Part shown: positions 22,810 to 56,016 of the stretch, in pieces | How the letters are laid out: every line of letters begins with the position of its first letter | How positions within the stretch are numbered: the stretch's first letter is position 1 | IMG/VR virus record: IMGVR_UViG_3300024182_000001 | Location: 1 to 64,000 of that record | Origin: a virus | Direction: 5' to 3' (one strand) | Length of the DNA stretch: 64,000 nt | Program-made: the position numbers and the translations under genes | The notes under the pieces: generated by a model | Seen by the model: the letters and a program-made list of their open reading frames with translations, nothing else | Told to the model about the DNA's origin: nothing | Databases searched by the model: none

Positions 22810-23559
22810 CTACTCTGCCGCCAACGCTATTGGATCGGCATCGCCACATTCAACGCAAATTGATGCCTCTTTTGCAGATTTTTTACGAGGCTGATTCCAT
22901 CCCCAGCCCCATTTACAGCGAGTAGGATGTTTGTTTTTTATTTCATTTTCTAGAGAGTGAAAACGTTCTGCGATTCCTGGATAATGCAGGCTCATAATTT
23001 CAGCTTCGCCCTGTCTGGCGAATGCCCCACATAGGCAATCTCCGCTTACAGTTAGTGTATCATAAGCCGGCGCTCGTGTGAATCCGCATTCCCAAAAAAA
23101 CTCCCAAGTTTGTTCTGTTGACCAGTTATATATTGGGGTTAAAATCGGCACGTTTTCCCAAACACTCACGGGCTTGGTGTTAATCAGCCGTCTATTGCTT
23201 TCATTAAGCCGCGTACCCGAAGCCAACACACCGCGTGGGTGGGCTTTTTTGAATTTTCGCACTCCACGGCCCTTGAGATAGTTCATAAAAATTCCATGCT
23301 TGCCGGGACCGGGGAAGCCATATTTTATAACCAGATCGTCGTAACTCGAATCGGTCGCATAAAATTCTAACGGCCATCCACGATCCGCGCAAGTCTTGAT
23401 GACGAAGGCTTTCCAATCTGGAGTGCTGACTCCTGTTTCAAACGACACGCACGCAACTAATTTTCCAGCACGTGATAAAACTTCAGCGGCAGAAAGGCTA
23501 TCTTTGCCGCCACTTACCAAAGCGTAACATTCTGGATAGAATAGTTTTGCGTTCATCAT
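22810..23559 (-). CDS. PP-loop ATP pyrophosphatase of the PAPS reductase/DndC-like family
   Basis: SGGKDS PP-loop motif and C-terminal Cys residues. The start was chosen at MMNAK (GAGGAAA RBS) rather than the long 23679 extension. Confidence 0.7.
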   Translation of the reverse strand: MMNAKLFYPECYALVSGGKDSLSAAEVLSRAGKLVACVSFETGVSTPDWKAFVIKTCADRGWPLEFYATDSSYDDLVIKYGFPGPGKHGIFMNYLKGRGVRKFKKAHPRGVLASGTRLNESNRRLINTKPVSVWENVPILTPIYNWSTEQTWEFFWECGFTRAPAYDTLTVSGDCLCGAFARQGEAEIMSLHYPGIAERFHSLENEIKNKHPTRCKWGWGWNQPRKKSAKEASICVECGDADPIALAAE

Positions 23560-24236
23560 TTCCTCGCTACAAACCTGTGCTGACAATCTTCCACGGAACA
23601 ATATCCACAGAGCCCCGACTTGTGCTTCGCAAAATCGCCCGTTTTTGTTTTGGCCTCGATCTGCCCCATCAGGGCGCAAATGCGCTTCCAGGTCCCGTCG
23701 AAGTCGGACAGGTCGTAGAGCTGGCCCATCCGGTTTTCCTTGAGCCAGCAGTATGAGCCGGCGATCTTCTTCAACCCCGGCTTCTTCGCCTTGAGCAAGA
23801 GGGCGTTAGTCTCAAGCTCGAACGGGTCTTCATAGTTCGATTTTCCTGTCTTAAAGTCGCACAGGTACGCGGTATCGCCTTGAATGACCGTGACGTCGTT
23901 CTTGCCGCGAAACCATACATCCTTATCCCAGAAGCCGGTTGAGGCTCGGGTTCTCGTCATTCCCAGTTTCTGCTCCACTTGGGGAAGCAGTCCGTCGAAG
24001 GGGGCCGCAAAACATTCCCACTGGCGCAAGTCGACGACGTTCCCTTTTCCATCCGGAACGCCGTCGGGGAGAGGCTCGCAAGAACCTATCCGACGCTCGA
24101 AAGCCTTGTGAACGTCCTCTCCGAATTTAGCCTCGGGCGACTGCACATAGGGCCCAAGGTCTTTCTTGATATACCTGCGATACATCGCGTGTTCGCAGCT
24201 GAGGAATGCCGCCAGCTGGGTAAATGTGCCCGCCAC
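23556..24236 (-). CDS. PD-(D/E)xK nuclease, Cas4/RecB-like, with a probable Fe-S cluster
   Basis: A GDTAYLCDFKTGK core motif. Four Cys residues (N-terminal C plus C-terminal CGYCSVEDC) are typical of Cas4/AddB. Confidence 0.65.
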   Translation of the reverse strand: MAGTFTQLAAFLSCEHAMYRRYIKKDLGPYVQSPEAKFGEDVHKAFERRIGSCEPLPDGVPDGKGNVVDLRQWECFAAPFDGLLPQVEQKLGMTRTRASTGFWDKDVWFRGKNDVTVIQGDTAYLCDFKTGKSNYEDPFELETNALLLKAKKPGLKKIAGSYCWLKENRMGQLYDLSDFDGTWKRICALMGQIEAKTKTGDFAKHKSGLCGYCSVEDCQHRFVARK

Positions 24237-24734: not shown

Positions 24735-25085
24735 TTACAGGCCATCCGCAGCGCGAGGTTTCATAGCCATATGAAGCATCTCTAGCGCCATCACCCCCCC
24801 ACCCGTGTTGAATCCGGAATCAAACGCGCTTTGCAAAAGCATCTTCAGCGCATCGTCTTTTTCACCGGCAGGAATCATGCTCATACCAAGCCGTACCATC
24901 GGTTCTTCCAACCACTTTTCAAACGCAGTTTTTCTGGCTTTTTGTCGTTCTTGTTCGCGCGCATCATTCTGCATTATCTTCCTCTTTTGCAAGAATTTCG
25001 GCCACGTCTCTTTTGGCCGTTTTCGAAGTTCTTCGTAGCAAGCCTGAATTGATTTAGCGAAGTCGTCGCGGGGGTTGTAGGTCAT
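24735..25085 (-). CDS. hypothetical protein
   Basis: Start chosen at MTYNPRDDF, which overlaps the DNA polymerase stop. Confidence 0.4.
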   Translation of the reverse strand: MTYNPRDDFAKSIQACYEELRKRPKETWPKFLQKRKIMQNDAREQERQKARKTAFEKWLEEPMVRLGMSMIPAGEKDDALKMLLQSAFDSGFNTGGGVMALEMLHMAMKPRAADGL

Positions 25086-26947
25086 CCATAACGTTCTCGC
25101 AGCTCGCCATCGCAGCCTAAAGGAAGATTGGGAAGCCATGGCGGCGGCTTCGTCATCTCATCCTTGCACCTTTGCAGATGTTGAGCCTCTTGTCCATCGC
25201 GAGGTATGAGAATTAACAGTTCATCATACGGGCAGTTGAGCGTTCGATAGCCCAGCCGGTTGATCCGTACCATTGCGTCGGAAACGAGATTCCAGGCCAA
25301 TCCCTGAATTAGGTTTTCGACAGCTTTCGCGCCGTATGTTTTTTCCCATCCTTTGCGAGTTTTTAGACGCCAGTAATGCTCGCCTGATTCCTCATCGTGG
25401 TGCCACTGGAGTGTATCGAAGATGATCGGGGATCCATTCGGCAGCCACATACGCCCATCACGAATTTCCACTGGGCCCCAGCTGCATGATTCCCTGTTTG
25501 CCAGGCGCTCCAGCATCCGGCCGCCTTCCCACCAGAGTTTCACGACGGCGGGGTGTGTATTGCGGTAAGCGTCTCGCAGGTCGTTGCCGCGTTCGGGCGG
25601 AAGGATGATCTTAGCCTTGTTGCGGAGCGTGGCGAGGATCTTGGCGCCACCGGAGCCATAGCCGGCCTGTAGCTCCACGACTTTGCCGACCTGGCGTTCG
25701 GTTTTATGGTCGTTCTTGTTAACGGGATAGCCGTAGAACGCTGACGCCACGGTGGAATAGACGTCTTCCCCGTTGCGGAATTTCTCGATAACATCGTGCT
25801 GGCCCGCTACCTCATTCAACAGGCGGCACTCGATCTGTGATGAGTCGATCGGTGCCAGCAGGTAGCCTTCAGGCGCGCAGATGCCTCCTTTGAGATTGGT
25901 GTTCGTATCATCCGGCGGCATGTCGGGATCGGCTTTCTTCATGTTCAAAAAGTTACTGCCATCCCCACCACTTGGGCGCGTTGTTCTTGCACCGTACGCG
26001 CGGATATAGACCGGCAAAGCGCCTCGTGAAGACATCCACCCGAGCGTGGCGGCACGCGTCTGCTGGATCGTGGATTTCACGCCCAGGCGCGCTTGGGCCA
26101 GCAGCGATACCGTCTCGTTCTCATGTTCCGGCAGGTTCTTGAGAAAGCCGTCGTTCTTGGCAAAGGCATAGATAGGACCGTTCTTGCCTTCCTTCATTTC
26201 CGGCTCGACGCCTTGTTGGCGAAGTAAGTCAGCAAAACGATCTCCTGACTGAAGGTCAGCTTCGGTAAGACTGAGTTTCTGGAGCAGCTCCTGCTTCTTG
26301 CGCGCTTCCGCTTCCCATACCTTACCAAAGAAAGCCGAATCGCCTTGTAGTACCGGATTAACGAACATGCGTATGAGGATGTCAACGACTTCAAATTGAG
26401 CCGACGGAAAGGTTTTTGTCATCTCGCCAAATACCCGCCAGATGCTTTCAACCTCGTCGCACGCTCCATCTCCAATAAGCTCCTGGGTTGACGAATCCAG
26501 CTCATACCAATGCTTTCCTCGAAAGAGGTTGTAGGGGGTCTTCTTCAGCGGGATTCCGAATTGTTCGCGTACTGAATCCAGAGAGACTCCAATATGATTG
26601 CCGAGTAGCAGCCGAGCCATATTGAGAGTACAGCCATAAAGCTTGGGTATAACGCCGTAGCGATGAGAAAGAATGAAACCGTCAAAATTAGCGTGATGGT
26701 TAATAAGAAAAGTGTTCGACCAGTCGTGCTCCTTGAGAACATATCTCAGCTCCTTTTCCGGATACCAACGCGCGGGGACGGATGGGCTCCACTTGATGGC
26801 GGCGCCATGGGCTTCGAACCACGGGTGCCGCACGTAAGCTTCCGTTGGATACCCGGTGCCGCCACGTCCTTGTAGTTTGTAGGCAATACCGCGCTCATCC
26901 TGCGCATCTGTAAAAAACGTCTCGAAATCAAGTACTACAACGTCCAT
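25082..26947 (-). CDS. family A DNA polymerase with an N-terminal 3'-5' exonuclease
   Basis: Exo I motif in DFETFF; motif A in IDSSQIECRLL; motif B in RQVGKVVELQAGYG; motif C in PYDELL. Confidence 0.85.
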   Translation of the reverse strand: MDVVVLDFETFFTDAQDERGIAYKLQGRGGTGYPTEAYVRHPWFEAHGAAIKWSPSVPARWYPEKELRYVLKEHDWSNTFLINHHANFDGFILSHRYGVIPKLYGCTLNMARLLLGNHIGVSLDSVREQFGIPLKKTPYNLFRGKHWYELDSSTQELIGDGACDEVESIWRVFGEMTKTFPSAQFEVVDILIRMFVNPVLQGDSAFFGKVWEAEARKKQELLQKLSLTEADLQSGDRFADLLRQQGVEPEMKEGKNGPIYAFAKNDGFLKNLPEHENETVSLLAQARLGVKSTIQQTRAATLGWMSSRGALPVYIRAYGARTTRPSGGDGSNFLNMKKADPDMPPDDTNTNLKGGICAPEGYLLAPIDSSQIECRLLNEVAGQHDVIEKFRNGEDVYSTVASAFYGYPVNKNDHKTERQVGKVVELQAGYGSGGAKILATLRNKAKIILPPERGNDLRDAYRNTHPAVVKLWWEGGRMLERLANRESCSWGPVEIRDGRMWLPNGSPIIFDTLQWHHDEESGEHYWRLKTRKGWEKTYGAKAVENLIQGLAWNLVSDAMVRINRLGYRTLNCPYDELLILIPRDGQEAQHLQRCKDEMTKPPPWLPNLPLGCDGELRERYG

Positions 26948-27359: not shown

Positions 27360-27775
27360 TGCTGCTTCCCACTGCCGCGATAGCGCTTCAACCCGGCTTC
27401 ATGCTCCACAATCGAGACAAGTGCGACCGAGCAATTACATTCCTTCGCGATCTGCACCTGACTCATGCCTCCTTGTTTCGAGAGTTTTATAATCTTAGCC
27501 CTTCGCTCCGGATCATCCGTCTTTGGGCGCTTGGGAAGCCCGGCCATGCGAGCGTAGCGCAATACCGTGTTATTCGAGCAGCCGTATTCCTGCACGATAT
27601 CGCGTACCGGCTTACCATTCCGGTACGCACGCACAACACGCAGAAAGCGCACCGGTCGGTTAGCTCGCTCTTGCGCGAAATCAAAGATGCGCTTGACGCT
27701 CATAATCACGGCCAGAAAAGCGCGCGATGCTTTTGACGTCTGGACGTATTCGGCGGCTACCTTCAAGGTTATCAT
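27356..27775 (-). CDS. HTH-domain DNA-binding protein (two HTH-like segments)
   Basis: Segments VRDIVQEYGCSNNTVLRYAR and MSQVQIAKECNCSVALVSIV. Confidence 0.45.
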   Translation of the reverse strand: MITLKVAAEYVQTSKASRAFLAVIMSVKRIFDFAQERANRPVRFLRVVRAYRNGKPVRDIVQEYGCSNNTVLRYARMAGLPKRPKTDDPERRAKIIKLSKQGGMSQVQIAKECNCSVALVSIVEHEAGLKRYRGSGKQQ

Positions 27776-28248
27776 TCCTTCGGCTCCAGAATGAAGCAGG
27801 CAATATGACGCCCTGTGCCTTTTCCCGCAGTTCCATCTTCGGTCGCCAGCCAGCGCACGTCACCAAGATTACGGACCTTAGCGCCTGCCGCCAAGAGCAT
27901 GAGTACCCACTTGTCGATCGGGTAAACAAGAACAACGCGCTTACCCTTTTGGTTTTCCGCTATGGCCTTGCGCGCCCAAGCCGTCGGGCCCTTTTTCTTG
28001 CCTTGGTGCAGGATCGAGCCGAACGGGGGATTGACGTAGTTCGATTTCCCCCATTCAGATGTTAATCCATCGAAGCCGGCAGGAAGGGGAAACGGAGCAG
28101 GATCGAAGTCAAAATCGAATTCTGCATTCAGCTTTTGATAAACATCTGGAGGCGTGATCCAATAATGCTTTTGGTCTTCCCCATTTCCCTTGTGGAATTT
28201 GTTATTGGCTGGGGGCAGTTGCGATTGGTGTTTCATCGCGACGACCAC
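27772..28248 (-). CDS. phage-type DNA N6-adenine methyltransferase (Dam-like)
   Basis: YVNPPFG (NPPF) catalytic motif, with an N-terminal region like phage Dam proteins. Confidence 0.65.
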   Translation of the reverse strand: MVVAMKHQSQLPPANNKFHKGNGEDQKHYWITPPDVYQKLNAEFDFDFDPAPFPLPAGFDGLTSEWGKSNYVNPPFGSILHQGKKKGPTAWARKAIAENQKGKRVVLVYPIDKWVLMLLAAGAKVRNLGDVRWLATEDGTAGKGTGRHIACFILEPKE

Positions 28249-28569: not shown

Positions 28570-29072
28570 GCCGGCGGAAATCCATCTTTTGGCGTGTATA
28601 TTTTACCGCCAGCGATGATCAATGAAGGCGCGTAACCATCAGCGACAAACTTTTCAGCATTTGCGCGTGGCCACGGCCCGTCACCTTGTTGCTGATCCCA
28701 GAAATCTCCATGGATTGCGAGATAGTCGATCAATTCTTCCGGGGTGGCGAAAGGCGGTGTTACCGGAGTTCCCTCACTGACTGTTTCCCACACCTGGATC
28801 CAGGTAGCTTCTTCGTCCGAATAGGTACGATAATATTCGCGATCGGGCGGCGGGTTGTTGCTCCATTCCCAATACTGGAGGTCAGCTGGATAGTTATCGG
28901 CTTTGAAATAGCTCGGGCGTTCGCCTCGCTCCCACGCCGCATATTCAGCTTTCCATTTCGCAGCGGCTTCAGCAAATGTCTGTTTATACATCGGCTGCAA
29001 ACGGCCGTCGCTCCATTCTTCCTGCTTAGGGTGATCCCAATTCGGCGGTACTTTGCGAATCTCGCGTCCCAT
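28566..29072 (-). CDS. hypothetical W/Y-rich protein
   Basis: Start chosen at MGREIRK; the upstream 30 codons of the ORF-track model are probably not translated. Confidence 0.4.
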   Translation of the reverse strand: MGREIRKVPPNWDHPKQEEWSDGRLQPMYKQTFAEAAAKWKAEYAAWERGERPSYFKADNYPADLQYWEWSNNPPPDREYYRTYSDEEATWIQVWETVSEGTPVTPPFATPEELIDYLAIHGDFWDQQQGDGPWPRANAEKFVADGYAPSLIIAGGKIYTPKDGFPPA

Positions 29073-29253
29073 TCGTTTCCCTCTTTCTGACGTACAAACC
29101 TTGGGTGTATTTCTTAACCCGCCTGAAAACCGTCGAATGTTCCACACCAAAGCGCATGGCAATCCGCCGGTAGGATTTCCCGCGCCGGCGCATTTCCACC
29201 ATCTCGATGGTTTGCGCCCAGCGAAGAGCGAAGACGCCTTTGTTTGTGCTCAT
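29026..29253 (-). CDS. small HTH protein (resolvase-type HTH); candidate early regulator
   Basis: A KSYRRIAMRFGVEHSTVFRRVKK segment. It is the first minus-strand gene next to the divergent control region. Confidence 0.4.
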   Translation of the reverse strand: MSTNKGVFALRWAQTIEMVEMRRRGKSYRRIAMRFGVEHSTVFRRVKKYTQGLYVRKRETNGTRDSQSTAELGSP

Positions 29254-29413
29254 TTCTCGTGCGCCCACACATAACATAGCCCGAGAAACGCAACTAAAAC
29301 CCCAATACCAGTAGCGTGGGTATCCACAAACTGAATCAGTTGATCCATTTGCCCCTCGTTTCCAACTATCGTAACCATTACACTAGTGTATTACCAAAGT
29401 CAACAGATTCAAG

Positions 29414-29429
29414 ATCACGAACTCGTGAT
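29414..29429. promoter_or_regulatory. palindromic operator-like site ATCACGAACTCGTGAT in the divergent early control region
   Basis: Perfect half-sites ATCACGA/TCGTGAT. It is one member of a family of nine similar sites, all in intergenic DNA. Confidence 0.5.
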
Positions 29430-29614
29430 CTCATTTACAGCTTGACTATGACAAGGGGGTTGGCGCAGCCTTGGCGCCCCAGGGGGCAAAAAAGATACGG
29501 CCCCGATGGGGGAGCACCGGGGCCGCGCACGCATAAGGGAAGTGTGGGGTAGTTGGAAGCCTCATACCTATCACTGGCGCGGCTGGTTGTCAATAGTTCG
29601 CAAGGGATAGGTTC

Positions 29615-31954
29615 ATGGATCGCTCGACCACGCCACTGCTAGACGCTGCTTTGCAATATGCGGGTCGGGGGTGGCGAGTCTTTCCGCTCCATTCCGTGTG
29701 GTTCCGCTCGGCAGGGGAACCTGTCTGCACTTGCAGACGCGGGGCCGAATGCCCGAACGCGGGGAAGCACCCGCGCACCGCCAACGGCTTCAAGGACGCG
29801 ACAACCGATCCGAAGCAGATCGAAGCCTGGTGGGACAAATGGCCACAGGCTAATATCGGGATCGCCACAGGCAACGGCCTCACCGTCATGGATATCGACG
29901 GTGAGGCCGGTCGGAAAGAGCTTATCGATCTCGTTTCGAATGATCCTGCTCCATTCCCAATAACACTCGCCGCGCGCACCGGCAACGGCGGGCATCTATA
30001 TTTCTCATGCGAAGGGCCCGGCTCTGCCGCCAAAGGACATCTGCACGTCCGCGGCGAGGGTGGGTATGTGGTGGCGCCGCCTAGTATTCACAGGAGCGGG
30101 CGCTATTACGAGTGGATCGATTCGCGCGTAGGGGCTGCGGTTCCACCGGACTGGTTGCGAAGCTGGCTGCTGGCGGGCGGAGATGGGGCCAGAGCCTCGC
30201 AGCAACGTCCGATGGGCGGTGTCGAAGCGGGAATTGCCGGTACGGCTTTAGCGCTCGGGCCCGTGCCAGCCTACCTTCAGAAGGGTAGCGCCTCGCGCCT
30301 GGTCGATAAGGCTGCGATCGGGGTGCCGTGCACGTTACACGAACAGGCACGACTGTGGAGCGCGCTCAAGGCCATTCCACCGTCAATAGACGGCAAGACC
30401 TGGGTAAGCATCGGGCGGGCGCTCCATGACCTCGATTGGACTGAAGCCCCTGGGGAAGACCTCGGGCTGGATATGTGGGACGAGTGGTCCAAGGGCTCGC
30501 AGGGGCGCGGGGATGGGCTCGGGCTCTATCGTGGCAGGGAGGATCTGGAGAAGCGATGGGCGAGCTTCGAGCGGGCACCTGGAGGAGGTCGGACGTTCAC
30601 CATCGCGTCGGTGTTCCACCTTGCTGCGGAGCATGGATGGGACGGCAAGGTGGAAGCGCCGCATGGAACCAACGGACATAAGGTCGAAGAAATCAACGGC
30701 TTCAATTTCGCGGGAGCGACGTCGGCAGGCGGTGGGCCCATTTTCGTTGATACCTACAAGAATGGCGATCCAAAGCCGACTTGCGCCAATTCACGTATAG
30801 CCATTCGGGCGCTTGGAATCACGTGCAAGCACGATCAGTTCCACGACAAGCTGGAAGTCGGCGGGCAAATTCTAGGCCGATGGGCGGGCGAGCTTACCGA
30901 CAACGCCATCCACATGCTGCGGGTAGCCATCGACAGCGCCTACCAGTTCGATCCGGGGACGGTTCCGGCGCACGATGCGGCGGTACAAGAATGCTTATTG
31001 CACGCCTACGATCCAGTAGCAGAATACCTTGACGGTCTGGAGTGGGATAGAAAGCCGCGGCTGGAAAACTGGATGTCCACCTATCTCGGGGCCGAACTAT
31101 CGCGCCTTAACAGTACCATAGGTATTCTTGGCTTGGTCGCAGCTTGCCGCAGGGTCCGAATGCCTGGCGCCAAGTTCGACGCAATCACGGTTCTGGTTGG
31201 GGACGAGGGGCGGGGAAAGTCGCAAGCAATCGAGATTCTCGCGGGCGAATCCAATTTCTCGGACCAGCCTATTTTGAATATCGACGAACGCGCGCAGCAG
31301 GAAGCTATGCAAGGCGTATGGCTGTACGAAATAGCCGACTTGGCGGGGATGGGGAAGGCGGACGTGGATAAGGTCAAGGCATTTGCCTCGCGGCGCATAG
31401 ACCGGGCCCGACCCGCATACGCGCGAACCCGAATAGATCGGCCACGACGTTGCGTGTTCTTTGCCACCACCAACCTACACACGTTCTTGAAATCACAGAC
31501 AGGCAACCGACGCTTTTGGCCTGTTCAGGTCGGACATCGGATAAGAATCGACGAGCTTGTGCGGGATCGAGACCAACTGTGGGCGGAAGCCAATGCGCTG
31601 GAACGCGCTGGAATTCCATTAGGGCTGCCGGAGGCGCTTTGGAGCGAAGCGGCGGCGATCCAATTGGAACGTATGGAAATCGATCCTTGGGACGACATTT
31701 TAGCGCACATAAAACCAGGGGATCCGCACGAGACGTGGGCGCAAGGATTCAAAGACGCCGGAGCGTGGAAGGAATACCGGATAACCACCCGTGACCTATT
31801 CGAGATACACTTAAAGATTCCTGCCGACCGTCAACACGATGGAAACTATAAGCGTCTGGCGTATGCCATGCGCCGACTAGGGTGGGATGGGCCCAAAAAG
31901 ATGCGAATCGGCAACGGCGTGGCGCGCGGTTTCGCGAAAGCCTGTTCCACGTGA
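29615..31954 (+). CDS. DNA primase-polymerase (PrimPol N-terminus) fused to a VirE/P4-type P-loop C-terminal domain
   Basis: N-terminal PrimPol motifs (RVFPLH..., GKHP, MDIDGE). C-terminal Walker A in VLVGDEGRGKSQ. Confidence 0.8.
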   Translation: MDRSTTPLLDAALQYAGRGWRVFPLHSVWFRSAGEPVCTCRRGAECPNAGKHPRTANGFKDATTDPKQIEAWWDKWPQANIGIATGNGLTVMDIDGEAGRKELIDLVSNDPAPFPITLAARTGNGGHLYFSCEGPGSAAKGHLHVRGEGGYVVAPPSIHRSGRYYEWIDSRVGAAVPPDWLRSWLLAGGDGARASQQRPMGGVEAGIAGTALALGPVPAYLQKGSASRLVDKAAIGVPCTLHEQARLWSALKAIPPSIDGKTWVSIGRALHDLDWTEAPGEDLGLDMWDEWSKGSQGRGDGLGLYRGREDLEKRWASFERAPGGGRTFTIASVFHLAAEHGWDGKVEAPHGTNGHKVEEINGFNFAGATSAGGGPIFVDTYKNGDPKPTCANSRIAIRALGITCKHDQFHDKLEVGGQILGRWAGELTDNAIHMLRVAIDSAYQFDPGTVPAHDAAVQECLLHAYDPVAEYLDGLEWDRKPRLENWMSTYLGAELSRLNSTIGILGLVAACRRVRMPGAKFDAITVLVGDEGRGKSQAIEILAGESNFSDQPILNIDERAQQEAMQGVWLYEIADLAGMGKADVDKVKAFASRRIDRARPAYARTRIDRPRRCVFFATTNLHTFLKSQTGNRRFWPVQVGHRIRIDELVRDRDQLWAEANALERAGIPLGLPEALWSEAAAIQLERMEIDPWDDILAHIKPGDPHETWAQGFKDAGAWKEYRITTRDLFEIHLKIPADRQHDGNYKRLAYAMRRLGWDGPKKMRIGNGVARGFAKACST

Positions 31955-32215
31955 GGTGGAACAGGGTGGAACAGAAATGGCATTGAAAAACCACGATATT
32001 TCCATCTGTTCCATCTGTTCCACCTTTTATATAAGTTTATACAATAGAAAAAAGGGGGGAGGGGGGACACGTAATAATTACATATAGGGGGTATAGAAAT
32101 ATTATAAGGCTATAGAGGCGAAGGCGGGACTCGCGGGAACGCGCGGCACGCCATTGATATATAAGGATAAATCGCGTTTTTTGACGTGGAACAGGATGGA
32201 ACAGGATGGAACGGG
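31942..32215. repeat. putative replication origin with eight copies of a TGGAACAG iteron (direct and inverted) flanking an AT-rich segment and two G6 tracts
   Basis: Copies start near 31942 (inverted), 31957, 31967, 32006 (inverted), 32015 (inverted), 32187, 32196 and 32206. The AT-rich TTTTATATAAGTTTATACAATAG segment and AAAAAAGGGGGGAGGGGGG lie between them, directly downstream of the primase gene. Confidence 0.6.
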
Positions 32216-32236
32216 AAACCGTAACCATTAAACATA

Positions 32237-32252
32237 AGTGTAATGATTGCGA
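32237..32252. repeat. copy of the AGTGTAAnGATTnCG direct-repeat family
   Basis: AGTGTAATGATTGCGA. Related copies lie at 33699, 33741 and 33763, and a variant at 36368. Confidence 0.4.
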
Positions 32253-32361
32253 TTTTTAAACCTTCGCGCCTGCCTCCGAAGGTATCCGGCTTGCGTCTTC
32301 GCCCATGGTTTTCGGTGCTGGCGCCAAGTCCTGGCGCAGAGCAGTTGCGCCAAGACGAGGT

Positions 32362-32607
32362 TCAGGCGGTAGCAGGACTTGAACCGCCAGGGATGGAACG
32401 CGCGGGAGCTATAGTGTCTCCTGGCGCGGGCTGTACGGTTTCCACACTGTCGTACCCATCGACGCTATCTTCGATTTCAGTCATGATGGGATCAGCGTGT
32501 TCGCCCGCGTAATATTTTTCTATTGCGGCGTCCTCGCTTTCGGCTTCGATTATGTAGGTCCATTTTACGAAACTGGCTTGGGTCGAAGTGACTTGGAATT
32601 TAGACAT
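32362..32607 (-). CDS. small highly acidic protein (81 aa); DNA-mimic/anti-restriction candidate
   Basis: AGGGAG RBS. About 13 D/E residues against about 4 K/R, in an early position next to the origin. Confidence 0.4.
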   Translation of the reverse strand: MSKFQVTSTQASFVKWTYIIEAESEDAAIEKYYAGEHADPIMTEIEDSVDGYDSVETVQPAPGDTIAPARSIPGGSSPATA

Positions 32608-32620
32608 GGTCCGAATCTCC

Positions 32621-33268
32621 CTATCTGTGAACCGCAACCCCACGCGAATAATAGCCGGAAACGTCCTCCCCCGATGGAACATCGCCCGGCCGCAAGACGT
32701 ACAGCGCGCAGCCTCTAGGATCGCTCTGGATGTAGGTTCTAAGATTTGGGTACTTGGCCATGATTTTTGCCAAATGCTTACGGGCGCCCTTTTCTCGGTC
32801 CGGGATAGGGGTGTAGCGAGGCTGTGGCGGTCCCTGGTGGGGGTGGAATTTGATGAAGGGCGTTCCATCGTCGTTATGGACGAAATCGCGCCTACAGGCC
32901 GCGCAATCGATCCATTCAGCGGTTTCGAAGGTATCGTCAGGGATGCCGAATGCCTCGAAAGCAGCCTTTTCGGTGCTGGTGTATAGTTTCAGGGGATGTT
33001 TAGGCGTGTTAGCCGTCCACATCTCGCCGTCCCACCATGCGCCAGATGCGTTTTTGATAGCCCATTCGGCTGGCGCCTTGTGCTGCGCGCCTCGCACGAT
33101 GCACCAAGACCCATATATGTCCGAATTGCCACACTCGCCTTCAAACCAGCGTTGCAGGGTCATGGAAATCTTGCGCAGCGCCCAGGCGTCCTCGTAGGTG
33201 ACGCCGGCTTGGGTCAGGGCGTTGACCATGCGGGAAGTTGCTTCCCATTCGGCTTTTGTGCGGCTCAT
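32621..33268 (-). CDS. hypothetical Trp-rich early protein (215 aa)
   Basis: Start chosen at MSRTKAEW. The 19-bp palindrome TCGCGAATTAAATTCGCGA lies 43 nt upstream. Confidence 0.45.
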   Translation of the reverse strand: MSRTKAEWEATSRMVNALTQAGVTYEDAWALRKISMTLQRWFEGECGNSDIYGSWCIVRGAQHKAPAEWAIKNASGAWWDGEMWTANTPKHPLKLYTSTEKAAFEAFGIPDDTFETAEWIDCAACRRDFVHNDDGTPFIKFHPHQGPPQPRYTPIPDREKGARKHLAKIMAKYPNLRTYIQSDPRGCALYVLRPGDVPSGEDVSGYYSRGVAVHR

Positions 33269-33310
33269 GGCTTTTTGCTTTCTGTGACGTGGCAAATGTC
33301 GGTGGTGTTT

Positions 33311-33329
33311 TCGCGAATTAAATTCGCGA
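33311..33329. promoter_or_regulatory. perfect 19-bp palindrome TCGCGAATTAAATTCGCGA
   Basis: Located in the divergent region upstream of the minus-strand gene at 33268. Confidence 0.45.
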
Positions 33330-33698
33330 TTTCATACGCCAAGTGCCGAGCTTGTGCTTCGGTCGTAGCGTGCAGGATAGTGTCGCCGACGTGTACGTTG
33401 AAAGCCATCAGGCTGTGGAAATACGAATTGGGACTGGATCGTGATTTTGATCATTTTCCACCTTGCTCCGGACTCTTGGCGCCGGGAAGCCGTTTTAGGG
33501 TTAGCGTTGCCAGTCGGTGGGCAGAAAGCCCCCTTTTGAGAGCCAGGCGTCTAGCCCTGTTATGAGGTCTGCTAATTCGAGACAGAGCGCTCCGAAATCC
33601 TGCGAATCTACAGTTTCGGTTTCTGCGCATTTGGCACGAATTAATTCTAGCGTTGCGTTTGGGTCCATCTGCTTTCCTCTCGTTTCGAACAATTCACA

Positions 33699-33778
33699 GT
33701 GTAATGATTACGCATAAAATGTCCAATCACGAACGCGTGAAGTGTAACGATTGCGGTATTGGAGTGTAAGGATTACGG
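33699..33778. repeat. three direct repeats AGTGTAA(T/C/G)GATT(A/G)CG(C/G) interleaved with an operator-like palindrome
   Basis: Copies at 33699-33714, 33741-33756 and 33763-33778. The palindrome ATCACGAACGCGTGA lies at 33726-33740. Confidence 0.5.
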
Positions 33779-33827
33779 TAACGCGTTTGTGATTGGGGGC
33801 TGACTATTTTTTCCTTGCGTGCTGGAA

Positions 33828-33842
33828 GTGGAAGCATTACAC
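33828..33842 (+). promoter_or_regulatory. conserved promoter-like box GTGGAAGCATTACAC, followed by the conserved leader GAAACAAGGGGAGTTGAGAAATG
   Basis: One of three copies of GTGGAA-N3-TTACAC, each 30-45 nt upstream of an early ORF start. Confidence 0.45.
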
Positions 33843-33872
33843 TTGGGAAATCGAAACAAGGGGAGTTGAGAA

Positions 33873-34124
33873 ATGTCTAAGCTTACTAAATTGCAGCGGC
33901 GGGCAATCGAGCGGGCGCTATATCATGCGCAGCGAGCGCAGAAATATATTGCGGATAATCGGACGGCTGTTGCGCGCGTCGATAATACTGCGACCACGAC
34001 GTTGCACTATACGCGGCAAGATGGGCGTATTTTGTACGAGGTAGCGAAAGATATAGGAAGTGATTTATGCGGCTTGCCTGACGCGATTCGGGAATTGGAA
34101 CAGCTACTAATCACGAAAGCGTGA
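33873..34124 (+). CDS. hypothetical early protein (83 aa)
   Basis: Has the conserved leader and RBS (AAGGGGAG). Confidence 0.45.
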   Translation: MSKLTKLQRRAIERALYHAQRAQKYIADNRTAVARVDNTATTTLHYTRQDGRILYEVAKDIGSDLCGLPDAIRELEQLLITKA

Positions 34125-34125
34125 C
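34110..34125. promoter_or_regulatory. palindromic operator-like site ATCACGAAAGCGTGAC
   Basis: Overlaps the stop of the previous ORF and immediately precedes the promoter box at 34137. Confidence 0.45.
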
Positions 34126-34136
34126 TTGAATTCCGC

Positions 34137-34153
34137 TAGTGGAAAGGTTACAC
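34137..34153 (+). promoter_or_regulatory. promoter-like box TAGTGGAAAGGTTACAC with the conserved leader GGAAACAAGGGGAGAGAGAAATG
   Basis: The 17-mer is identical to the copy at 34944. Confidence 0.45.
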
Positions 34154-34184
34154 GTTTAGGCGTTGGAAACAAGGGGAGAGAGAA

Positions 34185-34787
34185 ATGCTTAGGACGCAAG
34201 GTTTATTCGAGCGAATCGCCAAACACGTGCCGTATGAGGAATTGGACTGGGCGAACCATTACGGCGAACCTGGTTACACCGATCCGGAGCGTGGCATTTT
34301 ATTTGCCAATTGGAACAAGGTTCCGCAACCCGTGCAGGATGTGCTAGAACGCAATGGTTTCGCGCTCGAATGGTCGGATGAATGGATCATAGATCATGAG
34401 AGTGACAAGGCATACCGTTGCTCGCCTGATTGTTATTCATGGGTGCCTTCCTACGTTATGACGGAGGATTGTGAGATTATCGGCAAGGATGATTTGGACG
34501 ATCATATTGATTCGTATATTGAAATCTATTTGAACGACTCGAATCGCGCGGCAACGTTCGATAACTTCGATCCGGCTCAATACGGTTTCGAGAAATACAA
34601 TGGCACGTTCGAGTCGGGGGTTCATCCTGGTCAAACGGACGATCCGAAGAAGGTTGCAGAGAAGATTGAATCCATGCACCCGAATCACGACTATCTGTTT
34701 ACGATTGATGAGCAATCACAATTCTATACCAAATGGTGCGCTTGGATTCGGCCGCAAGATTATGACCAGCAGGAAAGTGCAGCATGA
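34185..34787 (+). CDS. hypothetical acidic early protein (200 aa)
   Basis: Has the conserved leader and RBS. Confidence 0.45.
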   Translation: MLRTQGLFERIAKHVPYEELDWANHYGEPGYTDPERGILFANWNKVPQPVQDVLERNGFALEWSDEWIIDHESDKAYRCSPDCYSWVPSYVMTEDCEIIGKDDLDDHIDSYIEIYLNDSNRAATFDNFDPAQYGFEKYNGTFESGVHPGQTDDPKKVAEKIESMHPNHDYLFTIDEQSQFYTKWCAWIRPQDYDQQESAA

Positions 34788-34882
34788 TCACAGCCAAGGA
34801 TATATTCTGGACTTGCGCCCTTACATGCTTGTTGTGGGGCTTGTTGTACCTTTGGAGCTTGAGCCTCACACCTCCCGTCTAA
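34784..34882 (+). CDS. very small hydrophobic peptide (32 aa)
   Basis: ATGA-coupled to the upstream gene and ends just before a rho-independent terminator. Sequence MITAKDIFWTCALTCLLWGLLYLWSLSLTPPV. Confidence 0.25.
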   Translation: MITAKDIFWTCALTCLLWGLLYLWSLSLTPPV

Positions 34883-34887
34883 TGCCT

Positions 34888-34914
34888 AGCCCCGGTCAAT
34901 CCGGGGCTTTTTTA
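34888..34914 (+). terminator. rho-independent terminator
   Basis: A GCCCCGG-tcaat-CCGGGGC hairpin followed by TTTTTT. Confidence 0.6.
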
Positions 34915-34916
34915 TT

Positions 34917-34932
34917 ATCACGCGTTTGTGAT
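34917..34932. promoter_or_regulatory. palindromic operator-like site ATCACGCGTTTGTGAT
   Basis: Lies between the terminator and the promoter box at 34944. Confidence 0.5.
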
Positions 34933-34943
34933 TAGATTCTTGA

Positions 34944-34960
34944 TAGTGGAAAGGTTACAC
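34944..34960 (+). promoter_or_regulatory. promoter-like box TAGTGGAAAGGTTACAC
   Basis: Third copy; it sits 33 nt upstream of ATG 34993. Confidence 0.45.
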
Positions 34961-34992
34961 ATAGAAATCGGCAACGCAATGGAGCAACTAAA

Positions 34993-35241
34993 ATGAGTAT
35001 GTGCAAGGCGACTTTATTGGATGATAATGCTGTACCAGCGGCAAAGCCTGAAAGTCTCTGCGAGCAACTGGAAGCGATGATTGATCGCGCTAGCCTGCTC
35101 GACGTGTTGACGGCGCTAGAGTGTGTATGCGGTGAAAAGGCGGATCACATCCGGGCTAACTGGCAAGATAAGACGACGGCGCGGCCATGGGCTACGGCAT
35201 CCAAGCGGATCGGAGTGGTGGCGCGACAAACTGAGATTTAG
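34993..35241 (+). CDS. hypothetical early protein (82 aa)
   Basis: Follows the promoter box and is followed by a terminator. Confidence 0.45.
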   Translation: MSMCKATLLDDNAVPAAKPESLCEQLEAMIDRASLLDVLTALECVCGEKADHIRANWQDKTTARPWATASKRIGVVARQTEI

Positions 35242-35269
35242 CGTTTCGCGCCTAGCGTCTGATCCCAAA

Positions 35270-35294
35270 GGCCCGCATTGACTGCGGGCCTTTT
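35270..35294 (+). terminator. rho-independent terminator
   Basis: A GGCCCGC-attgact-GCGGGCC hairpin followed by TTTT. Confidence 0.6.
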
Positions 35295-35336
35295 CATTTG
35301 TTATGATAGCGCGAATATTAATGAGGCATACAATCC

Positions 35337-35894
35337 ATGGGCGTGTTACGCAATGCGAAGTGGGAAGCGTTCGCACAAGCCTTATCAAAAGGACAACCCG
35401 TCTTATCATCGTATGTGCTTGTAGGATATAGAGAAAATGCGCCTAACGCCACGCGCCTAGCAAAAAATGATAAGATTCAGACAAGAATTGACGAATTGAT
35501 AGCAAGAAAAGACGAATCATTGATAAGAGCGGAAACGCGGGCGATTAGTGCCGCAGCCGTTGACAAGAAATGGGTATTGCAACGTCTTGTTTATGAAGCG
35601 GAAAAAGGTGAGCAATCATCAGCCAGATGCAAGGCCTTAGAGCTAGTCGGCAAGGAAATGGGGATGTTTATCCAGCGCCAAGAGATAGGCACGCCAGGAT
35701 CATTCGAGACGCTAGACACCACGCAAGCCATCCTTGACGCCGTGCGCCAACAGCTCGGAGACGAAGCATACAACGCAATGAGGGCGCTAGTCGATAAAAA
35801 GACCAACGCCCCCAAGGTAATAGAGCATCGCGAAAACGAATCAGAGCAGGACTCGGAGATCATCGACGCTGAGCCGATCCGGGGCTTCGACTAG
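35337..35894 (+). CDS. terS: terminase small subunit (Terminase_2-like)
   Basis: The N-terminus KWEAFAQAL...VGYRENAPNATRLAKNDKIQTRIDEL matches the TerS family pattern KQExFxQEY...AGYS..A...A..L...N..IQ.RI.EL, as does a later R.KALELVGKEMGMF segment. Confidence 0.65.
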   Translation: MGVLRNAKWEAFAQALSKGQPVLSSYVLVGYRENAPNATRLAKNDKIQTRIDELIARKDESLIRAETRAISAAAVDKKWVLQRLVYEAEKGEQSSARCKALELVGKEMGMFIQRQEIGTPGSFETLDTTQAILDAVRQQLGDEAYNAMRALVDKKTNAPKVIEHRENESEQDSEIIDAEPIRGFD

Positions 35895-36056
35895 CTCACG
35901 CGCCAGCAACTCGATAGTCTGCATCCAATCCGCTGCGCTCTCGCCCCGCATGATTAGTGCGTCGACTTGGTAGCGCTTGCTAGGCGTTGCCGGCTTCGCC
36001 GTCACGTCTTGGACAACTGCATTCCCCTTGCGATCAAACACCAATTGCTTTGCCAT
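35841..36056 (-). CDS. hypothetical protein overlapping the terS 3' end on the opposite strand
   Basis: ORF only; the convergent 54-nt overlap makes it doubtful. Confidence 0.2.
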   Translation of the reverse strand: MAKQLVFDRKGNAVVQDVTAKPATPSKRYQVDALIMRGESAADWMQTIELLARELVEAPDRLSVDDLRVLL

Positions 36057-36648: not shown

Positions 36649-37500
36649 CTAAGCCCCAAGGGTCCCATCCACCCGCTTTTGCGCCATCTCCGCGTACGTC
36701 GGGTTCAACTCCACTAAGATACAATGTCGCCCCAACTTCTTCGCCACCACCCCGACGGTCCCACTCCCTCCGAATGGATCCAGAACAACTCCGCCCACAG
36801 GACTTCCCGCCAGCATGCACGGTTCGACCAGCTTCGTCGGGAACGTGGCGAAGTGCGCTTCGCGAAACGGTTCCGGCGCTATACTCCAGACGCTTCGCTT
36901 GTTGCGTGTCTCTCTTGCGCCGATCTCCGTGAACCCGACTTTCGTACGCATCTTCTCGTCGCCGGCCTCGTAGGCGGTCTTACCTTTATGGGTCTTATTG
37001 CCTGGCGGCCGGTTCGTGGCTTCTTCCTTGATCGCATCTGCATCAAACCAATATTTCTCACTCTTGCTCAGCAGGAACAGATACTCATGCGCCTTGGTAC
37101 ATCGATCTCTCACGCTTTCCGGCATCGGGTTCGGCTTTGACCAGATGATGTCTTGCCGCAAGTACCAGCCGTCGGCCTGCAGCGCGAACGCGAGGCGCCA
37201 GGGAATACCTAGCAAGTCCTTAGGCTTGCAGCCTTGTTCCGCGCCGTTCGCGTAACTGTCCCCCACGTTCAGCCACAACGTCCCATCCGGCCGCAGCACT
37301 CTTCGCACTTCCCGAAACACTTCAACCAATTTACCCAGGTATTCATCGAATGTTTTTTCCAGCCCGATCTGACCGTCGGCGCCGTAGTTTCGCAAACCAA
37401 AATAGGGAGGGGACGTGATGGTACAGTTGATGCAGTCGGAAGCCATCTGCTTTAGCCAATGGAGTGCGTCGCCTGTGCAAATCCGAAGTTCTGGTTTCAT
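36649..37500 (-). CDS. DNA methyltransferase (N4-C/N6-A, beta class)
   Basis: Motif IV in TSPPYF and motif I in VVLDPFGGSGTVGVVA. Confidence 0.75.
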   Translation of the reverse strand: MKPELRICTGDALHWLKQMASDCINCTITSPPYFGLRNYGADGQIGLEKTFDEYLGKLVEVFREVRRVLRPDGTLWLNVGDSYANGAEQGCKPKDLLGIPWRLAFALQADGWYLRQDIIWSKPNPMPESVRDRCTKAHEYLFLLSKSEKYWFDADAIKEEATNRPPGNKTHKGKTAYEAGDEKMRTKVGFTEIGARETRNKRSVWSIAPEPFREAHFATFPTKLVEPCMLAGSPVGGVVLDPFGGSGTVGVVAKKLGRHCILVELNPTYAEMAQKRVDGTLGA

Positions 37501-54733: not shown

Positions 54734-54889
54734 TAGAATTTCTTCGGACTCGAACCAAGATGCAGTGGGCGCTGGCTAGTGCTTGGGCGGTAGGAATAGC
54801 ACTGCTGGGTATTTCGGACCCCGTTTTCGCGCTTGCTCAAGTACCGCTTTTCTGCGCTGCAGCGTATCTCGGACACGTAGGAGGCTAAT

Positions 54890-55423
54890 GTGCACCCCTT
54901 CCATCAGCACAGCGAACACAAAAAGGGCCATGAGCGCGTCAAGCACATCATGAAATCGGGCGGTGTGCCCCATTCGGACGCGGCGGCCGACAAGAAGCTT
55001 TTCAGCAAGCTCATCTCTGAGCATGAGCGCAGCGAGTCAAAAGTTGAGGGTGAGAAAAGCCGGGGCCGTTTCGCTCGCGGCGGGCGTACCAAGCACAAGG
55101 GTTCTCAAACCAATATCGCGATTGTGGTCCCTCAAAAAGGATCCTCCAGCCCTTCCGAGGCTCCACAGGCAGGACCGGCCCCACCTCTCCCCAGCCCAAT
55201 GGCCGGTCCTGCACCTCCTATGCCCGGCGGACCCCCCGGCGGACCCCCCGGCGGACCTCCTCCGATGCGTGCCAGCGGCGGACGTGTCGGCGGCGACTCG
55301 TCAAAATCCAATCTCGACGGATGGAGTGCACGCGCTAAGGCGAATTCTTATGCGCGTGGCGGCCGGCTGCCGACGGCCGGCGCTGAGAGCGGGGTGGGTC
55401 GGTTACAGAAGGCGAAGAAGTGA
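54890..55423 (+). CDS. basic, Pro/Gly-rich virion-associated protein with three ARGGR-type motifs
   Basis: RFARGGRT, ASGGRVGGD and YARGGRLPT motifs, plus a PGGPPGGPPGGPPP tract. Confidence 0.45.
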   Translation: MHPFHQHSEHKKGHERVKHIMKSGGVPHSDAAADKKLFSKLISEHERSESKVEGEKSRGRFARGGRTKHKGSQTNIAIVVPQKGSSSPSEAPQAGPAPPLPSPMAGPAPPMPGGPPGGPPGGPPPMRASGGRVGGDSSKSNLDGWSARAKANSYARGGRLPTAGAESGVGRLQKAKK

Positions 55424-55605
55424 TCGAGAGCCGGCATTCTGGCGTCTTCAAGCGACTGCTTGCGGAGTATCGGCAAACGTTGCTCGAAGCAATGGTAGGC
55501 ACTGGAGATGTCGATACGTTTAAGAATTTGCGAGGCCGCATCCAAGGGCTGGCCGATGCAGTAAACCTATCTGATGCCGCTGACGAAGAAATCAATGGAG
55601 GATAA
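55420..55605 (+). CDS. small hypothetical protein (61 aa)
   Basis: ATGA-coupled. Confidence 0.3.
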   Translation: MIESRHSGVFKRLLAEYRQTLLEAMVGTGDVDTFKNLRGRIQGLADAVNLSDAADEEINGG

Positions 55606-56016
55606 ATGTCGATTGCGGTTGCCAAGAAGCTTGAACTTTTAAGCCAGGCTGATGATCCCCGAATGGCTATCGTCAAGGCGGTCGGTGACCTGGAAGACGT
55701 CGAGGTGTTTTCCGACATGGTGCTGGTCGGCACTTTTATCCGTCATGAGAAGACGGCCGGCGGCATCATCATGACTAAAGATCATATCGCCGAAGACATC
55801 TGGCAGGGCAAGGTTGGGCTCGTTTTGAAAACCGGCCCGCTCGCATATGCGGATTGGGAACCACCCGAAGATCGCGGCAAAGCCGCCGAACTCGGCTCGT
55901 GGATCGTCTACGCGATCAAGGACGGATGGGGCATTACGTTGAACGACGTCCCCTGCCGCCTTATTCCGTACGATAAGATCCGGATGCGGGTCAGCGATCC
56001 CAAGAAGGTGTTTTAA
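55606..56016 (+). CDS. GroES/Cpn10-like co-chaperonin homolog
   Basis: DMVLVGTFIRHEKTAGGIIM aligns with GroES [20 protein letters not shown]. A later GKVGLVLKTGP...GSWIVY segment matches GEVLAVGNG...GDIVIF. Confidence 0.5.
   Translation: MSIAVAKKLELLSQADDPRMAIVKAVGDLEDVEVFSDMVLVGTFIRHEKTAGGIIMTKDHIAEDIWQGKVGLVLKTGPLAYADWEPPEDRGKAAELGSWIVYAIKDGWGITLNDVPCRLIPYDKIRMRVSDPKKVF

Follow-up and report, generated by a model that had tools for sequence, protein, structure and literature searches.

We describe here a putative replication origin in a 64,000-nucleotide stretch of viral DNA (positions 1 to 64,000 of IMG/VR record IMGVR_UViG_3300024182_000001), which was analyzed over its full length and is referred to below as the window. 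A plus-strand gene for a primase-helicase (29615-31954) is directly followed, and at its very end overlapped, by an array of eight 9-bp repeats. We consider it probable that the segment from 31942 to 32214 is the replication origin of the phage and that the primase-helicase is a self-loading initiator that recognizes these short iterons directly 3' of its own gene. The initial annotation of this region had proposed an iteron origin beside its initiator, and the proposal is supported by the homology of the protein to the Rep proteins of Staphylococcus pathogenicity islands (SaPIs) and by the same arrangement in 89 of 207 loci that encode related proteins. From sequence and comparison, we infer origin activity, binding of the C-terminal domain of the protein to the repeats, and melting of the adjacent DNA.

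RESULTS

A phased repeat array at the end of the primase-helicase gene

The 8-mer TGGAACAG has eight exact matches in the window, compared with a mean of 1.38 and a maximum of 4 in 100 dinucleotide-preserving shuffles, none of which reached eight. Seven of the eight lie within 263 bp (31942-32204), at 31942(-), 31957(+), 31967(+), 32006(-), 32015(-), 32187(+), and 32197(+), and the eighth is found at 34096. When eight positions were drawn at random, seven of them fell inside 263 bp in none of 200,000 trials. Likewise, all five exact copies of the 9-mer GTGGAACAG in the window fall in the array region, which in addition holds two copies of ATGGAACAG and one degenerate copy, ATGGAACGG (32206-32214), giving a total of eight units of the form (G/A)TGGAAC(A/G)G. 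This agrees with the eight direct and inverted copies counted in the initial annotation, and the concern raised there, that the motif might occur at similar density throughout the genome, is not borne out. No other 500-bp stretch of the window contains a comparably repeated 8-mer. The cluster might still be thought to reflect chance or base composition, the more so as the 6-mer TGGAAC is overrepresented throughout the window (69 occurrences versus 29 expected). The concentration of seven of eight exact 8-mers in 263 bp, the failure of any shuffle to reach eight copies, and the presence of related motifs at the same position in relatives (see below) leave practically no room for this explanation, and we regard it as excluded.

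The copies are arranged in the order one minus-strand copy at the end of the primase gene, two plus-strand copies, two minus-strand copies, a spacer of 162 bp, and three plus-strand copies, with a copy-to-copy spacing inside the clusters of 9 to 10 bp. Iteron 1, GTGGAACAG on the minus strand (31942-31950), extends over the final four codons of the primase open reading frame (ORF), which ends in a TGA stop codon at 31952-31954; its location inside the coding sequence had been recognized before. Iterons 2 and 3, GTGGAACAG-G-GTGGAACAG (31956-31974, plus strand), start at 31956 and 31966 and are thus spaced by 10 bp. Iterons 4 and 5, ATGGAACAG and GTGGAACAG (32006-32023, minus strand), have a 9-bp spacing and start 31 bp past the second direct copy; a partial third copy, ATTTCCAT (31998-32005), directly precedes them. 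Iterons 6 to 8, GTGGAACAG, ATGGAACAG, and ATGGAACGG (32186-32214, plus strand), start at 32186, 32196, and 32206, with a 10-bp spacing and in the orientation opposite to that of iterons 4 and 5. The earlier description of two direct copies after the stop codon and three more beyond the spacer is accurate, apart from small corrections to the distances: the 160 bp given there for the latter is 162 bp. The 40 bp given there for the distance to the inverted pair corresponds roughly to the start-to-start distance; the gap itself is 31 bp.

Elsewhere in the window, the only other locally repeated 8-mer is CGGCGGAC, which together with its complement occurs four times in 500 bp (window positions ~54800-55700), probably within coding sequence. 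Furthermore, four iteron-like 9-mers with one mismatch, all on the minus strand, are found upstream of and inside the primase gene (29137-30844): GTGGAACAT at 29137, GTGGAACCG at 30138, GTGGAACAC at 30611, and GTGGAACTG at 30836. They represent 4 of the 17 such matches listed for the window and could be codon driven or, alternatively, weak secondary sites.

The primase-helicase and its predicted winged-helix domain

The product of the gene at 29615-31954, a protein of 779 amino acids (aa), was assigned as a PriRep-type initiator on the basis of Pfam, PHROGs, PDB profile, and fold matches. It carries a PrimPol domain (aa 12 to 180, nucleotides 29648-30154; Pfam Prim-Pol, PF09250, 3e-41), a PriCT_2 domain (aa 249 to 337, 30359-30625; Pfam, 9e-11), and a VapE/SF3 helicase domain (aa 472 to 686, 31028-31672; Pfam VapE-like, 4e-64), and its PHROGs matches are DNA helicase/primase families. 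Neither a Toprim domain nor a member of the Rep_3 family was among the Pfam matches of the protein.

About 90 residues follow the helicase domain, and in the structural model this C-terminal domain is winged-helix-like. The predicted winged-helix part (aa ~718 to 776, 31766-31942, plus strand), which we propose to be the iteron reader, consists of a strand, a helix, a short helix, a further helix (aa 742 to 754), and a beta-hairpin wing (aa 758 to 776), in that order; the helix at aa 742 to 754 is presumed to be the recognition helix. A profile of the family strongly matches one solved structure, 7pds (E value, 1e-57), which is annotated as "similar to D. nodosus vapE" and represents SaPI1 Rep with bound DNA. 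Consistently, an AlphaFold model of the helicase and C-terminal domain (aa 425 to 779; predicted local distance difference test [pLDDT] score, 81.5) matches all six chains of 7pds with E values of ~5e-19, TMq values of 0.71 to 0.72, and 24% identity over ~390 alignment columns. Weaker fold matches were obtained with the NrS-1 primase-helicase, SaPI5 PriRep5 (7ola; E value, 2e-6), poxvirus D5/E5, and African swine fever virus PrimPol.

The arrangement recurs downstream of related primase-helicase genes

A total of 243 loci encoding relatives of the primase-helicase were fetched from viral, metagenome, and genome collections, and 207 of them could be used, namely, those that included the stop codon together with 300 bp or more of the sequence after it. 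In 89 of these, at least five exact copies of one lineage-specific 7-mer (both strands) occur within 520 bp after the stop codon, while the same 7-mer usually has zero to two copies in the remaining 5 to 12 kb of the locus. For the viral and metagenome loci, 37% of the downstream segments, versus 3% of control segments from the same loci, held at least four copies of the top 8-mer. The genome set, which is independent, gave a similar picture, with at least five copies of a 7-mer in 42% of the downstream segments versus 3% of the controls.

These arrays have their geometry in common. Adjacent same-strand copies are 9 bp apart in 106 cases, 8 bp in 24, and 10 bp in 25. The largest gap between copies has a median length of 96 bp in the 89 loci and is AT rich, and across it the orientation of the copies flips in 69 loci. 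The first copy lies within 20 nucleotides of the stop codon in 46. The motif itself, in contrast, varies by lineage while the layout is kept; examples are GTGGGACA, TGGTGACA, GGTTACA, CCGTCACA, GGTGTAACAG, CCTGGAAC, and CAAGACGG. An initiator and its binding sites would be expected to leave just such a record, in which the layout stays constant next to the 3' end of one particular gene and the motif varies. In other words, turnover of the motif within a retained layout is the pattern expected for initiator/iteron specificity pairs, as far as it can be read from the sequences.

Two comparisons illustrate this point. The closest relatives, L001 and L085 (67 to 72% protein identity), have iterons of the GGAAC type and retain the order of the elements. 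Among the other relatives, loci L027, L020, L039, and L040, with GTGGGACA iterons, and loci L030, L047, L055, and L158, with TGGTGACA iterons, share a near-identical map of 10 to 11 sites. The C-terminal domains of the GTGGGACA group carry KWTK-G and ERY-R/K, whereas those of the TGGTGACA group carry KWTK-L/T/I/A and (E/N)R(Y/I)-Q. The two differing positions are candidate specificity residues, as a suggestive anecdote.

Alternatively, the repeats might be sites for some other protein and accompany the primase gene without being functionally tied to it; they could be a packaging signal, the centromere of a partition system, or an array of operators for a transcriptional repressor. Phased short repeats around an AT-rich region are also a feature of operator arrays and plasmid centromeres, a conserved TGnTATATA-like element (32155-32163) lies within the spacer, and proteins of 81 and 224 aa without assigned function are encoded nearby. 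In the 207 loci, however, the constant neighbor is the stop codon of the primase-helicase gene, often overlapped by the first copy, and it is the downstream genes that vary. Moreover, neither a ParA/ParB-type protein nor a repressor family was detected beside the array, the gene for the small terminase lies at a distance of 3 kb, and the promoter region of the primase gene (29163-29614) lacks an iteron cluster, while the homologous SaPI Rep has been documented to bind such repeats (PMC9371898). We therefore consider recognition by a different protein improbable. Autoregulation by the primase-helicase at an operator was likewise considered and rejected, since neither iterons nor other notable repeats were found in the region upstream of the gene (29163-29614).

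Hairpins, AT-rich DNA, and conserved boxes in the proposed origin region

The left part of the array has a marked potential to form secondary structure. Iterons 1 and 2 build a perfect 10-bp inverted repeat, CCTGTTCCAC/GTGGAACAGG (31941-31965), with the TGA stop codon (31952-31954) in its 5-nucleotide loop. In a larger, 74-nucleotide hairpin or cruciform (31953-32026, plus strand), iterons 2 and 3 pair with iterons 4 and 5, and the structure is followed by TTTTATAT, a short T-run; folded as RNA, it has a free energy of -38.2 kcal/mol (z = -5.2 versus shuffles). The left inverted copies thus form a terminator-like hairpin and probably double as the transcription terminator of the primase gene, which makes a dual role possible.

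Taken further, the repeats might have no part in replication and serve only to form the stem of an intrinsic transcription terminator, perhaps a bidirectional one, that separates the primase gene from the convergent minus-strand block. The stability of the 31953-32026 hairpin (-38 kcal/mol, z = -5.2), the UUUUAUAU that follows it, the position of the stop codon in the loop of the smaller perfect hairpin, and the convergent orientation of the flanking genes all fit such an element. A terminator leaves unexplained, however, the three direct copies 162 bp downstream (32186-32214) and the 9- to 10-bp phasing, as well as the arrays found in relatives, which comprise 6 to 11 copies on both strands and at some loci precede a codirectional gene. 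In addition, a scan for promoters and terminators returned nothing above expectation and did not call the 31953-32026 hairpin. A dual role is compatible with an origin, and we deem a terminator without a replication function very improbable. An E-value-based Rfam scan of 29000-34500 yielded only a meaningless miRNA match on this hairpin, and no tRNAs were found.

To the right of iterons 4 and 5 lies the AT-rich stretch CTTTTATATAAGTTTATACAATAGAAAAAA (32024-32053), a 30-bp segment with 87% AT, compared with a window mean of 45%, which is a candidate DNA-unwinding element judging from its composition. It is directly followed by a G6AG6 tract, GGGGGGAGGGGGG (32054-32066, plus strand). Both elements had been noted previously as being flanked by the repeats, and both are confirmed here. 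Other lineages have GTGGGACA-type iterons to which the 3' part of the G-tract, GGGGGGACAC, is similar, as is an GGGGGGAC(A)C block (32059-32069) that is conserved among the three closest relatives, including L001 and L085. Beyond the G-tract, the spacer is AT rich at 32067-32117 (71% AT) and then GC rich at 32118-32151, and it ends, immediately before iterons 6 to 8, in a conserved AT-rich box (32152-32185). Within this box, TTGATATATAAGGATAAA (32154-32171) is shared without change by L001 and almost without change by L085, and it includes the TGnTATATA element (32155-32163), resembling an extended -10 element.

A further inverted repeat, CCTTCG...CGAAGG (32261-32282), is followed by TTTAAAAAT on the minus strand and lies just past the 3' end of the 81-aa gene. 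The terminator scan did not call it. From its sequence, it may be the terminator of this convergent gene, in which case a hairpin would lie on either side of the origin region.

Genome context

The window is from a phage, as is evident from its content, which includes a virion structural protein, an endolysin/tail lysozyme, a small terminase, an SNF2-type helicase, methyltransferases, and a family-A DNA polymerase. A 71.7-kb contig on record encodes an identical primase. A blastn search (distant mode) of 29000-36000 against a phage collection gave no match, and tblastn against cultured phages returned only relatives with less than 60% identity. In genome assemblies, relatives are found mostly in Alphaproteobacteria (Hyphomicrobiales and Rhodobacterales) and to some extent in Acidobacteriota, and on this basis the hosts are likely Gram-negative or soil bacteria.

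The primase-helicase is encoded by a lone plus-strand gene. Upstream of it is a minus-strand block with a Dam-like methyltransferase and the family-A DNA polymerase (25082-26947), and downstream a convergent minus-strand block (32362-33692). The array sits in the 407-bp noncoding gap that separates the convergent genes, a location at which no promoter or operator is needed. The gap is bounded on the right by the 81-aa gene, the first of the convergent block (32362-32607, minus strand), which we consider to lie outside the origin.

Several other features of the surroundings deserve mention. The block at 32362-33692 keeps a GC skew of ~+0.10, while that of all other minus-strand blocks of the window is negative. 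The sequence GATC occurs 453 times in the 64 kb and not once in the 407-bp origin region, as a raw count, and two Dam-like or other DNA methyltransferases are encoded (27772-28248 and 36649-37500, both minus strand). A small ORF resembling HNH endonucleases (33501-33692, minus strand; phrog_865; E value, 3e-18) lies ~1.6 kb from a small-terminase-like gene (35337-35894, plus strand; phrog_51). The pairing of HNH and small terminase genes is common in cos-type packaging modules. Finally, a PAPS-reductase-like protein (22810-23679, minus strand; phrog_424; E value, 9e-21) adjoins the SNF2-type helicase in a replication/nucleotide-metabolism block and may relate to DNA modification.

DISCUSSION

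How the proposed origin might work and how firmly it can be assigned

A plausible sequence of events can be put forward for initiation at this locus. The winged-helix C-terminal domain would bind the 9-bp iterons, (G/A)TGGAACAG, which, being one helical turn apart, would be contacted on one face of the helix. As the iterons flank an AT-rich spacer and have opposed orientations on its two sides, hexamers might assemble on each of the opposed arms. The AT-rich segment of 30 bp with 87% AT (32024-32053), and perhaps also that at 32067-32117, would then melt, and the SF3 motors would translocate outward. Primers would be made by the N-terminal PrimPol domain and extended by the family-A polymerase of the phage (25082-26947). 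Conceivably, the 74-nucleotide hairpin of the left arm aids assembly, as has been proposed for pRN1, discussed below.

A number of observations weigh against this assignment or reduce its reach. By the crude measure of five exact copies, 118 of the 207 loci remain below the threshold, so the layout is common and not universal. The spacer of 162 bp is of mixed composition and lacks a simple AT-rich block of ~80 bp, and the left cluster, taken alone, could be read as a terminator hairpin. In the downstream region of Bordetella phage BIP-1, one of the systems compared below, we find a stem made of an inverted GGCGTCAGC pair plus one further copy and no rich iteron array. Covariation of the C-terminal sequence with the motif across the family, assessed by a Mantel-type analysis, is weak (Spearman coefficient, 0.11; partial, 0.07; reached by 6 of 500 permutations). 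As it is no stronger than the correlation obtained with the helicase domain, we rejected it as support and make no claim of specificity covariation beyond the anecdote of the two positions. Lastly, the GC skew does not switch at 32 kb, where the initial annotation had proposed to look for a change of strand skew. The sign changes at ~29.5, 36, and 49 to 50 kb each coincide with a switch of gene strand, that at ~29.5 kb with a flip in gene orientation. Because the skew tracks the direction of transcription in this window, it is not diagnostic of an origin; we set it aside as uninformative and do not count it as a refutation.

A wider reading is possible, which we offer tentatively and hold to be somewhat more doubtful than not. 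The primase-helicase gene with its 3' iteron origin might be a general, portable replicon cassette that is found in Alphaproteobacteria as well as in other phyla and is carried by islands, prophages, and large phages alike. Its geometry would be constant, with copies phased at 9 bp and opposed arms set ~96 bp apart, a small number of winged-helix residues would determine dozens of iteron specificities that diverge rapidly, and its iteron arms would correspond to the "stem-loop origin" of pRN1 and BIP-1. If this were true, two published origin models would be unified, and two origin elements not described so far would be added, the conserved G-tract and the TTGATATATAAGGATAAA box, e.g., as a start site for priming or a site for a host factor. 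The lack of a rich array in BIP-1 makes the unification with the pRN1/BIP-1 model only partial.

Our findings do not overturn current understanding. They propose a precise origin and an initiator recognition sequence for an uncultured phage lineage of ~72 kb that has no close cultured relative, and they suggest that the SaPI-type design of initiator and origin, known from a Gram-positive satellite, is also used by complete phages with their own polymerase; the design appears to be widespread in Alphaproteobacteria prophages. For viral contigs, a simple annotation rule follows, namely, to seek 9-bp phased repeats right after the stop codon of a VapE-type primase-helicase gene. Furthermore, the natural pairs of motif and C-terminal domain form a resource on the evolution of initiator specificity. 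In our opinion, what most merits further attention is the wider regularity, seen in hundreds of elements, together with the accessory boxes that are conserved.

Comparison with known replicons

Classical iteron plasmids rely on Rep_3-type initiators (RepE of F, Pi of R6K, and RepA of pPS10), which lack helicase and primase activities and recruit DnaB and DnaG of the host. Their iterons are direct repeats of ~17 to 22 bp, usually accompanied by DnaA boxes. The phage origin proposed here differs in that its 9-bp units occur in both orientations and the initiator itself is helicase and primase. No DnaA box, allowing up to one mismatch, was found in 31955-32361.

A closer parallel is offered by the alpha protein of satellite phage P4, a multifunctional protein with primase, SF3 helicase, and winged-helix parts that recognizes short repeats at the origin (PMC4234260). 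The primase of alpha is of the bacterial Toprim type (PMC4234260). The phage protein shares this multifunctional, repeat-recognizing layout and differs in having an archaeo-eukaryotic PrimPol domain in place of Toprim. As to a second cis repeat region like P4 crr, which lies a few kilobases away from ori, the window shows one further exact copy, at 34096, consistent with chance, and the four one-mismatch copies on the minus strand at 29137-30844. The type I repeat of P4 is an octamer, TGTTCACC, and comes near CTGTTCCAC of the phage in both length and sequence.

In pRN1, the origin is a stem-loop of ~100 nucleotides directly 3' of the gene for ORF904, a PrimPol-SF3-winged-helix protein, and the same has been proposed for Bordetella phage BIP-1, where the protein has a PriCT_2 domain and the end of the gene falls within the loop of a small stem-loop (PMC4234260). 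The order of domains in ORF904 and in the protein of BIP-1/BPP-1, i.e., PrimPol, a helical domain (PriCT_2 in BIP-1 and in our phage), SF3 helicase, and winged helix, is the same as that reported here. Likewise, a small hairpin (31941-31965) has the end of the phage gene in its loop, as in BIP-1, and a stem-loop (31953-32026) is found directly downstream of the gene, as in pRN1 and BIP-1. The authors of the pRN1 work stress, however, that their origin has no iterons (PMC4234260), whereas in the phage the arms of the stem are iterons and three of the eight iterons lie beyond the stem-loop.

The best counterpart is found in the SaPIs. Their Reps are helicases that load themselves and act as initiators, with a C-terminal winged helix that recognizes iterons, and in SaPI5 a primase is fused to Rep (PMC9371898). 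Their origins carry 6 to 12 iterons directly downstream of the rep ORF and an AT-rich center, with at least two iterons on each side in opposite directions (PMC9371898, which also cites the SaPI origin work of Ubeda et al. from 2007 and 2012). The phage protein has a homologous VapE-like SF3 helicase core, as in SaPI1 Rep (7pds) and SaPI5 PriRep5 (7ola), is a primase-helicase fusion as in SaPI5, and according to the model ends in a winged helix too. The array is also located directly 3' of a rep-type ORF, its eight copies fall within the range of 6 to 12, and an AT-rich center is flanked by at least two opposed iterons per side (two minus-strand copies at 32006-32023 and three plus-strand copies at 32186-32214). 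At the level of sequence, then, every SaPI feature described in PMC9371898 appears to be present in the phage locus.

The two systems also differ in several respects. SaPI iterons measure 5 to 6 bp, as opposed to 9 bp in the phage; one of the phage iterons lies inside coding sequence, unlike in SaPIs; and the phage spacer, at 162 bp, exceeds that of SaPIs in length and is made up of several parts, among them a G-tract and a conserved box. Unlike the SaPIs of Staphylococcus, the phage likely has Gram-negative or soil hosts. Above all, a SaPI or phage-inducible chromosomal island (PICI) is a small satellite island without virion or polymerase genes, whereas the phage is large (71.7-kb contig) and has its own virion genes, endolysin, and family-A polymerase. 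It is thus the type of replicon that is shared and not the type of element. In conclusion, the evidence supports the presence, in a large uncultured phage, of a SaPI-type Rep/ori replicon of the kind already demonstrated by experiment in the pathogenicity islands of Staphylococcus.

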